44,416 bases of DNA from Escherichia phage UHP65. Positions within the stretch are counted from its first letter, which is position 1, and every line of letters begins with the position of its first letter. Under the pieces are notes generated by a model. That model saw only the letters and a list, made by a program, of their open reading frames with translations, was not told the DNA's origin and made no database searches. The DNA is taken from sequence record PQ511047.1. One strand, given 5' to 3'. Of the stretch, positions 6,969 to 8,417 are shown piece by piece. A program made the translations under genes and the position numbers.

Positions 6969-7460
6969 TTATGCCGCGTTACGCCCGATTTTCTCGGCAA
7001 CGTCCCACTGCTTACCATCGAATAGCGCTTGCCTGCCGATTGCGCGACGGACCAGACCCTTAAGCACTTCGCCACCTTGCTTGCGGAACTGCGGCAGAGT
7101 AGCTCGTACCTTCGCCCAGTCGCCAAGACGCACCGCATCGTCAAAGTCGTTCGCGACGTCATCCGGCACGATCGGACCCGGACCGGCGTTGATTACCAGG
7201 TCCACCAGCGCGTCGAATTGCGCCTGGTTAATGCTCGGATGTGCGTATTTGTTCACCCAGTCCTCAGCATACGCCACATCGCGCTTGAGCAGTTCCAGCG
7301 CTTCAGCACGGGTAATGCTTCGTGGCGGATTAGTGCCGGTATGCCCATAACCCCAGGTGTACAGGCCGCGGGCCTGCTCTTTCTTGGTCGCGAAATACGG
7401 CACCGGGCTGAAAGCCTCCCATGCTGCCGTAAATCGTAGACCGTTATCACTGAATCGCAT
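6969..7460 (-). CDS. endolysin, GH24 phage lysozyme family
   Basis: GLYTWGYGHTG and QFDALVDLVINAG motifs resemble lambda R / P22 gp19 lysozymes; lies after two holin-like genes. Confidence 0.85.
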   Translation of the reverse strand: MRFSDNGLRFTAAWEAFSPVPYFATKKEQARGLYTWGYGHTGTNPPRSITRAEALELLKRDVAYAEDWVNKYAHPSINQAQFDALVDLVINAGPGPIVPDDVANDFDDAVRLGDWAKVRATLPQFRKQGGEVLKGLVRRAIGRQALFDGKQWDVAEKIGRNAA

Positions 7461-7692
7461 GTTTTACCCCATTCAAAACAGCATTACGCAGGGTGCGCAA
7501 TGCAAACAGCCAGATTAACGCGGTCCAGGTGGCATCAGAGACGTCTCCCGTTTGCAACAGCCCGACAATACAGGTCATTGCTGTTAGCAGATATAACACC
7601 CGACCGAAGAAGCCATCCTGAACGGACGGCGCATACACGTTAAACAGGGACGAAGCCCCTATGATAACAAACAACAGGACGGAGATAATCAT
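7447..7692 (-). CDS. second holin-like small membrane protein (81 aa)
   Basis: ATG 7692 overlaps upstream stop (ATGA); 2-3 predicted TM segments; ORF-track 7447..7962 is an upstream extension. Confidence 0.5.
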   Translation of the reverse strand: MIISVLLFVIIGASSLFNVYAPSVQDGFFGRVLYLLTAMTCIVGLLQTGDVSDATWTALIWLFALRTLRNAVLNGVKHAIQ

Positions 7693-7979
7693 TTTGCACC
7701 CCCCGGAAGTCGGAACGACGCAATAGTCTCCCGGATCCGGTCCGCTATTGGCATCCAGAAGATGGCAGTTACGAAGCCCAAACCGGCGACAGTGCGCTCG
7801 CCAGACAAACCAGACCACTCGGCAATAGCTGGTGCACCAAATATGGCACACAGGAAGCCAACCACGATATATAAAACGAAGTTCAACGGCCCTTTCGTTG
7901 CCTCGCCGTGAATGCGTGCGCCTACGAAGCCACCAGCAAGACACGCAAGGGCGAATAACCACTCGTTTAGCTTATCCAT
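7689..7979 (-). CDS. holin-like membrane protein (96 aa, three TM segments, charged C-terminus)
   Basis: Hydrophobic segments WLFALACLAGGFVGA, LNFVLYIVVGFLCAIFGAPAIA, TVAGLGFVTAIFWMPIA; directly upstream of endolysin. Confidence 0.6.
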   Translation of the reverse strand: MDKLNEWLFALACLAGGFVGARIHGEATKGPLNFVLYIVVGFLCAIFGAPAIAEWSGLSGERTVAGLGFVTAIFWMPIADRIRETIASFRLPGGAK

Positions 7980-7982
7980 AAA

Positions 7983-8012
7983 AAAGTCCCAGTAAGTTTT
8001 AGCTCACTGGGA
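7983..8012 (-). terminator. hairpin with T-run immediately upstream of holin start
   Basis: minus strand CCCAGTgagctaaaacttACTGGGacTTTTTT. Confidence 0.4.
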
Positions 8013-8031
8013 CTATATCACGCTTGCATAA

Positions 8032-8331
8032 TTAATCGAAAATGGACCACTTGCCGACGCCTTTCCACTCCCACCCTTCCGATCGGACGGCCTCGAACAT
8101 CCGGCCCCCTATCATATCGCGATACCACAGCCACCACATGCGCAACCTGGTCGGGTGCTCCGTGATTCCTCGGCGCTTGTATATCTGGAACGTCATGCGG
8201 GTAATGCTGGCAGCTTCCACCGCGGGCCATACTACGAACATCAGGACGCACAACAGCACCACGGTAAGCAGGCACAGCCCCCAGATCAACCCAAACCAAT
8301 AAATCACATCATGAATCATAATCTGCCCCAT
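8032..8331 (-). CDS. small membrane protein (99 aa), basic/Trp-rich C-terminus
   Basis: N-terminal TM YWFGLIWGLCLLTVVLLCVLMFVVW; ATG start. Confidence 0.5.
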   Translation of the reverse strand: MGQIMIHDVIYWFGLIWGLCLLTVVLLCVLMFVVWPAVEAASITRMTFQIYKRRGITEHPTRLRMWWLWYRDMIGGRMFEAVRSEGWEWKGVGKWSIFD

Positions 8332-8417
8332 AGGTATTTAACCAGACTAATAACCGACGCCAACAGCACCAGGGCCGCCAGACTACCGCCACATACTACC
8401 GCGAAGACGTGTAACAT
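8316..8417 (-). CDS. tiny hydrophobic peptide (33 aa) MLHVFAVVCGGSLAALVLLASVISLVKYLWGRL
   Basis: Strong RBS GGAGGGGG 7 nt before ATG; overlaps start of next gene. Confidence 0.4.
   Translation of the reverse strand: MLHVFAVVCGGSLAALVLLASVISLVKYLWGRL

Follow-up and report, generated by a model that had tools for sequence, protein, structure and literature searches.

Here, we provide evidence that Escherichia phage UHP65 (sequence record PQ511047.1), analyzed as one stretch of 44,416 nucleotides that we call the window, likely carries the ordinary three-step lysis system of the genus Dhillonvirus, with two unrelated accessory micro-genes beside the lysis cassette. The cassette holds two holin-like membrane protein genes, hol1 (7689..7979) and hol2 (7447..7692), the GH24 endolysin gene lys (6969..7460), and orf55 (6785..6952), and the two micro-genes, orf33 (8316..8417) and orf26 (6609..6689), are its neighbors. 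An initial annotation of the window had described two small multi-transmembrane proteins, coupled through an ATGA overlap, ahead of a GH24 endolysin, as well as two tiny transmembrane peptides with strong ribosome-binding sites. Every open reading frame (ORF) it reported was found, all on the minus strand and the two holin-like genes at the very positions given, and both peptides are real and preceded by Shine-Dalgarno (SD) motifs, with the correction that the shorter one occupies 6609..6689 and not 6610..6690.

A megablast search of positions 6300-9100 against phage records returned 156 matches, nearly all of them Escherichia or Shigella phages of the genus Dhillonvirus, with phage jat (MN850650, 44,417 bp) as the best match at 92.8% identity, ungapped and with identical coordinates. 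Over the wider interval 4800-10600 the window and jat are collinear and differ at 423 of 5,801 positions (92.7% identity), and inside genes the differences fall mainly on third codon positions, as in the phosphoesterase gene (3/4/67 at first, second, and third positions). This mostly third-position divergence, together with the shared gene map, indicates that the window is a natural close relative of jat, and it is a Dhillonvirus, that is, an HK578-like E. coli siphovirus. One GenBank record titled 'Acinetobacter phage NJ01' (OQ221563) is ~91% identical across the region to this E. coli Dhillonvirus, making its host label doubtful.

A simple Kyte-Doolittle scan of the window proteins showed three hydrophobic segments and a basic C-terminal tail (charge +2) in the 96-aa hol1 product, a class I-type topology, and two strong and one short hydrophobic segment with a basic C-terminal tail in the 81-aa hol2 product. 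Both are therefore small membrane proteins with at least one transmembrane domain (TMD) and a basic tail, as expected of holins, and both are encoded beside, and through overlapping genes co-expressed with, the endolysin gene: the hol1 stop and hol2 start overlap by 4 nt (ATGA) and hol2 overlaps the endolysin gene by 14 nt, an arrangement common to all relatives. The hol1 protein matches phrog_2359 'holin' (E 2e-31) and hol2 matches phrog_2508 'holin' (E 2.8e-27). A dual-start motif of the lambda S107 type is absent from both proteins, each having one N-terminal Met (MDKLNEW in hol1, MIISVLL in hol2) and the next only at residue 76 and residue 39, respectively.

The pair is conserved as a pair. 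We found hol1 in every relative examined, and tblastn against phage records recovered hol1 in 290 and hol2 in 642 records, with equal counts for records named Escherichia (244/244), Kagunavirus (11/11), Shigella (6/6), Dhillonvirus (5/5), Sodalis (2/2), and Raoultella (2/2); hol2 alone was also recognizable in 351 Salmonella (Jerseyvirus) records. Compared to the most divergent relative, LM40P1, the proteins hol1, hol2, and endolysin have diverged alike (72%, 71%, and 68% identity). In the distant phages MED16 (a Pantoea siphovirus) and Wc4 (Ounavirinae), a hol1-like gene is again followed by an overlapping partner gene, whose product has three hydrophobic segments, a basic tail, and the hol2-like motif FN[VI][YW]..V.D..F.R[VI].Y. 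This recurrence of the coupled pair points to an old, conserved two-gene module. The two-holin cassette itself is already known and is standard annotation for the genus, so that its description in the initial annotation largely restates it: the pair is labelled 'putative holin-like class II/class I protein' or 'holin' in many of the ~150 Dhillonvirus records, and a 2025 genus paper describes the lysis module as two holins, an endolysin, and an Rz-like spanin (PMC12677095). Many Dhillonvirus records call the three-segment hol1 'class II', whereas curators at the Center for Phage Technology labelled its Kagunavirus homologue 'antiholin/holin class I', with three TMDs, N-out and C-in; our Kyte-Doolittle scan of hol1 agrees with the class I label, not with class II.

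The endolysin (6969..7460, minus strand) is a 163-aa soluble GH24 enzyme of the T4 type (phrog_7), whose residues 14-139 match PF00959 (Phage_lysozyme) at 75.4 bits against a gathering cut-off of 22.3. A hydropathy scan for a signal or signal-anchor-release (SAR) sequence found none, the first 46 residues being without a hydrophobic segment, and the enzyme is therefore predicted to be cytoplasmic and holin dependent. An AAWE motif at the start of the Pfam match contains E15, a residue shared by 21 relatives and a candidate for the N-terminal catalytic Glu of GH24 lysozymes. The full-length form starting at ATG 7460 is conserved in all relatives, as seen in 21 loci, and its size agrees with that of the endolysin detected by mass spectrometry in phage EE09 (PMC10673088). 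In jat the endolysin is annotated from GTG 7403 (144 aa), thereby losing the conserved N-terminus including E15.

Downstream of the endolysin, orf55 (6785..6952, minus strand; phrog_11068) encodes an acidic 55-aa protein and is the last gene ahead of a terminator. Scans of Pfam, NCBIfam, and PADLOC gave it no match. Other Dhillonviruses encode a long form of this protein, 137 aa in length, with an Ig-like Big_2 domain at the C-terminus; it is found in HK578, WFI, LM40P1, and EE09 and, among the loci compared, in L006, L007, L009, and L017. In EE09, mass spectrometry picked up the 137-aa homologue both in lysates and in infected cells (PMC10673088). One record mislabels the short form as 'major tail protein'.

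Beyond the cassette we identified a spanin pair at 286-727, a classic overlapped i-spanin/o-spanin arrangement that the initial annotation overlooked. The i-spanin (Rz-like; 398..727, minus strand) is a 109-aa protein starting at GTG 727, with an N-terminal TMD at residues 1-21 followed by a charged periplasmic domain, and matches phrog_2536 'Rz-like spanin' (E 1.2e-36). The o-spanin (Rz1-like; 286..516, minus strand) is a 76-aa lipoprotein with the lipobox LSAC, Cys17, and a Pro/Cys-rich mature part, matching phrog_5672 (E 1.5e-25) and phrog_1267, both 'Rz-like spanin', and its gene overlaps the 3' end of the i-spanin gene across 398-516 in a different frame. A membrane-anchored charged i-spanin and a lipobox-bearing o-spanin encoded in an overlapping frame are the hallmarks of a two-component spanin. 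The pair is followed by a terminator (297-277) and lies 6 kb downstream of the endolysin, past the phosphoesterase, terminase, portal, and head-morphogenesis genes; in jat the o-spanin is annotated as 'hypothetical' only and the i-spanin not at all. These spanins complete the holin-endolysin-spanin system of the phage. Two convincing lipoproteins came out of the lipobox scan of the whole window, the o-spanin and, on the plus strand at 27499-27717, a Cor-like superinfection-exclusion lipoprotein (phrog_1119; lipobox LSGC).

The lysis genes form a unit bounded by terminators, and the strongest minus-strand matches of a terminator scan fall in this region. An intrinsic terminator with an 8-bp GC-rich stem and a T-run (6757..6778, minus strand; annotated as such in PTXU06, WF5505, and WFI) follows orf55 and closes the unit, and a terminator-like element (7980..8014, minus strand) consisting of a 12-bp hairpin at 8014-7985 and a T6 run abuts the hol1 ATG; a further terminator hairpin (5384-5364, minus strand) follows the phosphoesterase gene. 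The first two hairpins delimit hol1-hol2-lys-orf55 and leave both small ORFs outside. Thus, although these ORFs neighbor the cassette, as the initial annotation had it in saying that they flank it, each lies beyond one of its bounding terminators.

The hairpin in front of hol1 folds at -24.1 kcal/mol (z -6.2), and its stem is invariant in every Dhillonvirus locus examined; LM40P1 keeps the hairpin, although one arm has gained a C and the other has an A changed to G. The sole SD-like bases of hol1, GGGA, lie inside its 3' arm. Its 5' arm is overlapped by an extended -10-like element, TGATATAGT (8012..8020, minus strand), which is invariant in relatives and is a candidate promoter for the lysis unit. 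It belongs to a 12-mer, TGNTATARTCCC, present in two minus-strand copies (8009-8020 and 5342-5353) against 0.02 expected, the second of which (TGTTATAATCCC) lies between the 5384-5364 terminator, which it directly follows, and the small terminase gene. Both copies are possible phage promoters that a canonical sigma-70 scan missed. According to folding, a transcript begun ~7 nt past the element, near 8005, would be without the 5' arm of the hairpin and have an unstructured leader. We offer as a hypothesis, from sequence and predicted folding, that the hairpin may be a combined terminator/promoter switch, in which read-through transcripts would terminate with the holin start occluded, and transcripts from the embedded promoter would begin inside the stem and be translatable. 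If true, such a switch would gate holin synthesis to one class of transcript.

The two small ORFs are unlikely products of chance. A filter for ATG-initiated ORFs of 20-40 aa with an SD motif and a strongly hydrophobic 15-mer, applied to the whole 44.4-kb window, was passed by three ORFs (orf33, orf26, and 43492..43596) versus 0.14 +/- 0.35 in first-order Markov resamples; orf33 and orf26 each have one hydrophobic segment of transmembrane length. The third, on the minus strand at 43492-43596, encodes a 34-aa peptide (MLVILFSFISLLVCNQYNATNIRNASEFCDYFYR).

The first of the micro-genes, orf26 (6609..6689, minus strand), encodes a 26-aa single-pass hydrophobic peptide and has its own SD (GAGAGGAG) upstream of its start. 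It follows the lysis-unit terminator and precedes the phosphoesterase gene by 61 nt; a canonical sigma-70 scan found nothing convincing upstream of it. Using tblastn, we found the peptide in 108 phage records, all of the Dhillonvirus type (~69% of Dhillonvirus records); of the first 21 loci, six lack it and just have a shorter intergenic region. All 16 distinct nucleotide versions retain the ATG and a GGAG-type SD, even with a different upstream flank; none has an in-frame stop, and variable sites are distributed 8/6/17 by codon position. The ratio of nonsynonymous to synonymous polymorphism (pN/pS) is 0.18, whereas the two remaining sense frames give 1.06 and 2.65 and hold 22-26 stops. An alternative 35-aa ORF in the +2 frame over the same site (annotated as Bas84_0066 and 101114BS4_008) was rejected, with pN/pS of 2.65 and 26 stops across relatives, and JL1 annotates an opposite-strand ORF there. 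The 26-aa ORF itself is annotated in none of the GenBank records inspected, in keeping with the initial annotation's remark that the small ORFs fall below usual annotation cutoffs, and scans of Pfam, NCBIfam, and PADLOC gave no match. The site is a variable hotspot at which other phages carry extra small genes. By the pattern of sequence variation, orf26 is a genuine, previously unannotated, stand-alone mini-gene.

The second micro-gene, orf33 (8316..8417, minus strand), encodes a 33-aa single-pass hydrophobic peptide with an SD (GGAGGGGG) 7 nt upstream of its ATG, and its TGA stop overlaps the ATG at 8319 of orf99 (8032..8331, minus strand; phrog_2531), a gene encoding 95 aa from ATG 8319 or 99 aa from ATG 8331. 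To the 33-aa ORF the remark on annotation cutoffs does not apply, as it is annotated as a hypothetical protein in the BASEL records bas18_0059, Bas85_0064, and Bas83_0064. Aligning the orf48-orf99 junction in 29 loci revealed two states. In phages without orf33, a shared SD and ATG (GGAGGGGGCAATTCG-ATG-YTA-CAC) open orf99 directly (MLHDVIYWFG...); in insert-bearing phages, including the window, ~98 nt are placed after ATG-YTA-YAC and end in ATG-ATT-CAT, from which orf99 resumes as MIHDVIYWFG. As the insert ends in this way, the captured start opens the 33-aa ORF, and orf99 is left without a good SD of its own. An insert-specific DNA search found the orf33 insert in 65 phage records (~41% of ~156 Dhillonvirus records), 58 of them near full length; it replaced a tblastn search with the 33-aa peptide, which had recovered only three records, because of low complexity and shortness.

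The orf33 inserts fall into two clades, separated by 21 nucleotide differences in 102 nt and by 10 amino-acid replacements in 33 residues. All replacements but one are conservative (V/I, F/L, V/M, S/G, R/K), the exception being G-to-C, and when the same substitutions were placed randomly, a BLOSUM score as high arose in 0.06% of 20,000 trials (P = 0.0006) and a stop was introduced in 35% of trials. In the part of orf33 that does not overlap orf99, pN/pS is 0.26, and second codon positions seldom vary. These conservative changes and low pN/pS indicate that the peptide sequence is under selection. Nevertheless, orf33 is dispensable, as natural isolates with deleted or disrupted copies are viable: in Pubbukkers a deletion spans mid-orf33 to the end of orf99, in PNS1 and PS2 deletions extend from upstream genes into orf33, and in McMelon a 13-nt duplication frameshifts it.

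A hydropathy scan showed that orf99 has one long N-terminal transmembrane (TM) helix and a basic Trp/Arg-rich tail, and in an AlphaFold2 model (mean predicted local distance difference test score, pLDDT, 65.8) the TM helix alone is confident. Its C-terminal domain is shared with 302 Salmonella phage records and with Erwinia myoviruses, and in at least one of these, phage skrot, it lies ~2 kb from the hol2 homologue and not adjacent to it, which argues against a lysis-specific role. Scans of Pfam, NCBIfam, and PADLOC gave no matches for orf99, orf33, or orf48, and PADLOC gave none for orf185. We also considered whether orf33 is a diverged tandem duplicate of the orf99 TM helix and rejected this, the similarity being no better than that of composition-matched shuffles (p 0.04-0.98). 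The block orf47-orf185-orf48-orf33-orf99 (8030-9240) is a hotspot of natural deletions and one duplication, several of whose endpoints fall within orf33 at short repeats such as AGTATGTGG or GCGTCGG. In ZCEC11 the orf33 site holds a 23-aa mini-ORF (MLHDLIYWFGLACAVLLIGVMGR) in which a partial copy of the 5' end of orf99 runs into the 3' part of the insert, and in the metagenomic protein P0052 the N-terminus of orf185 is fused in frame to the C-terminal domain of orf99. Taken together, the sequence variation and the positions of the terminators show orf33 and orf26 to be real and selected but optional genes of neighboring units, not of the lysis cassette.

We propose that hol1 and hol2, translated from overlapping frames and hence at a fixed ratio, would accumulate in the inner membrane, where our best guess is that the three-helix, class I-type hol1 forms the hole and hol2 is an obligate partner that more probably regulates it, as an antiholin, than joins it as an equal co-holin. 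At a programmed time the holin would trigger and free the cytoplasmic GH24 endolysin to degrade the wall; a soluble endolysin without a signal or SAR sequence points to large canonical holes and not pinholes. The spanin pair at 286-727 would then disrupt the outer membrane. The stable hairpin before the hol1 start probably keeps holin synthesis low or limits it to transcripts from the embedded promoter. Beside the cassette, the orf33 insert has captured the ribosome site of orf99, to which it would now hand ribosomes through the ATGA overlap.

Several observations weigh against this scheme. Which protein forms the hole is a guess, and we base the holin call on topology, position, coupling, and conservation. 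Neither hol1 nor hol2 matches any holin model of Pfam or NCBIfam, a PADLOC scan of both gave no matches, and a word-indexed protein search recovered close relatives only. A hol1 profile run exhaustively with HMMER against 1.84 billion representatives returned just 13 clusters, all of ~100 aa, and one of 15 members of the hol1 family matched the LydA holin (PF16083) at 16.8 bits, below the cut-off of 28.4, so that membership of hol1 in a characterized holin family is not supported. The PHROG 'holin' labels may themselves derive from gene context, GenBank labels for the pair conflict between class I and class II, and hydropathy leaves the topology of hol2 ambiguous between two and three TMDs. 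A canonical sigma-70 scan found no promoter upstream of hol1, and a literature search for functional work on these holins found statements at the level of genome announcements only. In one proteomic study of a relative, EE09, the holins and small peptides were undetected (PMC10673088).

The initial annotation had left the pair as either a holin and antiholin or a two-component holin, and the reading of it as one of these is backed by the PHROG labels, topology, gene overlap, co-occurrence, and the labels of Kagunavirus homologues, though not by a match to a curated holin family. That hol1 and hol2 are both structural subunits, neither working alone, is a possible reading to which we give less credence. 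There are precedents for it in gp24.1/gp26 of SPP1 and XhlA/XhlB of PBSX, and it would fit the fixed-ratio co-translation implied by the ATGA overlap, the equal record counts in the six groups listed above, the retention of the coupled pair in very distant phages, and the similar divergence of hol1, hol2, and endolysin from LM40P1. However, sequence by itself does not separate it from a holin/antiholin pair, and the known Gram-negative systems with two membrane proteins, such as LydA/LydB of P1 and Y/LysA of P2, are mostly a holin with an antiholin, which counts against it. Least probable of the readings we weighed is that there is one true holin and the other protein is an unrelated membrane protein of the operon, for example a superinfection-exclusion or membrane-stress factor. 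Though the missing curated-family matches and the ease with which PHROG labels can spread from context leave room for it, the strict, translationally coupled pairing across genera and in distant phages would be hard to explain without a joint function.

For the two peptides, the initial annotation had proposed membrane-targeted modulators of lysis, acting on timing or depolarization. Their single-pass hydrophobic nature, good ribosome sites, purifying selection, and location less than 350 nt from lysis genes would all suit such a role, but we find it very doubtful: both are outside the stretch that the terminators of the lysis unit enclose, orf33 is absent from ~59% and orf26 from ~31% of Dhillonvirus records, orf33 is coupled to orf99, whose domain is not linked to holins in other phage groups, and Pubbukkers, PNS1, PS2, and McMelon are viable with orf33 deleted or frameshifted. 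It is also unlikely, if somewhat less so, that neither ORF encodes a functional protein, with orf33 a by-product of passing ribosomes on and orf26 a regulatory leader or an RNA or DNA element. Such a view would account for orf33 occupying the original SD and ATG of orf99 and ending in the ATGA overlap, for the lack of a good SD of orf99's own in insert-bearing phages, and for the location of orf26 just ahead of the phosphoesterase gene. Against it, the replacements between orf33 clades are far more conservative than random placement would give, and orf26 combines its low pN/pS with strong third-position variation, so that the amino-acid sequences themselves appear to be constrained. We therefore retain the reading of an ordinary lysis system with two separate accessory genes. 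Further roles can be imagined: orf33 might pair with the TM helix of orf99, and an effect of either peptide on membrane potential might in turn tune holin triggering or superinfection exclusion. That orf26 and orf33 found two unrecognized families of phage-encoded single-pass micro-proteins acting on the host inner membrane and, separately, that the hol1 hairpin is a terminator/promoter switch is a more speculative reading, and an improbable one.

The practical value of these results is mainly in annotation, and the current understanding of phage lysis is unchanged. The public records inspected lack or misannotate the spanin pair, the start of the full-length endolysin, and the 26-aa gene. The hol1/hol2 pair is an easy target for lysis biology because it is conserved across Dhillonvirus, Kagunavirus, Jerseyvirus, and more distant phages of therapy collections, and natural variants with and without orf33, orf26, and orf99 provide ready material for work on small membrane proteins, JLBYU37 being without orf26 and Pubbukkers without orf99 and an intact orf33.

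Compared to known systems, the window is closest to the cassettes of other Dhillonviruses (HK578, JL1, EP23, SSL-2009a, jat, and Bas18 of the BASEL collection), which have the same genes in the same order, in jat at identical coordinates, and already bear holin-like class I/II or 'holin' and 'endolysin' labels, with the 33-aa ORF present in BASEL records. It differs from jat by ~7% nucleotide divergence, mostly synonymous, and our analysis extends existing annotation with the i-spanin, with evidence that the 26-aa ORF is coding, and with a start that lengthens the endolysin. In Kagunavirus and Jerseyvirus (Guernseyvirinae) a homologous pair stands in the same order ahead of an overlapping GH24 endolysin, the Kagunavirus homologues being 45-50% (hol1) and ~50% (hol2) identical. 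In the Kagunavirus Sciku these are CPT_Sciku_063/064, labelled 'antiholin/holin class I' and 'holin/antiholin class III'; unlike in the window, they are separated by 19 nt and do not overlap, the hol1 homologue starts with TTG, and a hairpin (2440-2503) pairs its GGAGG SD with CCTCC further upstream. The Sciku hairpin differs structurally from that of Dhillonvirus, yet also occludes the holin translation start.

The two-component holins of SPP1 and PBSX share with the window two adjacent small membrane proteins that are perhaps both required, but belong to Gram-positive phages with a different host envelope. P1 LydA/LydB and P2 Y/LysA each combine a holin with a separately encoded antiholin, and like the window have two membrane protein genes in the lysis region, one of which is thought to delay the other; homology of these systems to the window pair is unsupported, given the one subthreshold PF16083 match. 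The canonical holin-endolysin-spanin paradigm is S105/S107-R-Rz/Rz1 of lambda. No sequence homology of hol1 or hol2 to lambda S was detected, and the window lacks the dual-start motif, its presumed regulator being a separate gene; its endolysin is a GH24 lysozyme and not a transglycosylase, and its spanin genes are overlapped and not embedded and lie 6 kb away past the terminase, portal, and head genes. In its plan the window nevertheless resembles lambda, with a small membrane protein of class I topology ahead of a soluble cytoplasmic muralytic enzyme, an RNA stem-loop at the holin start, and spanins that would complete lysis.

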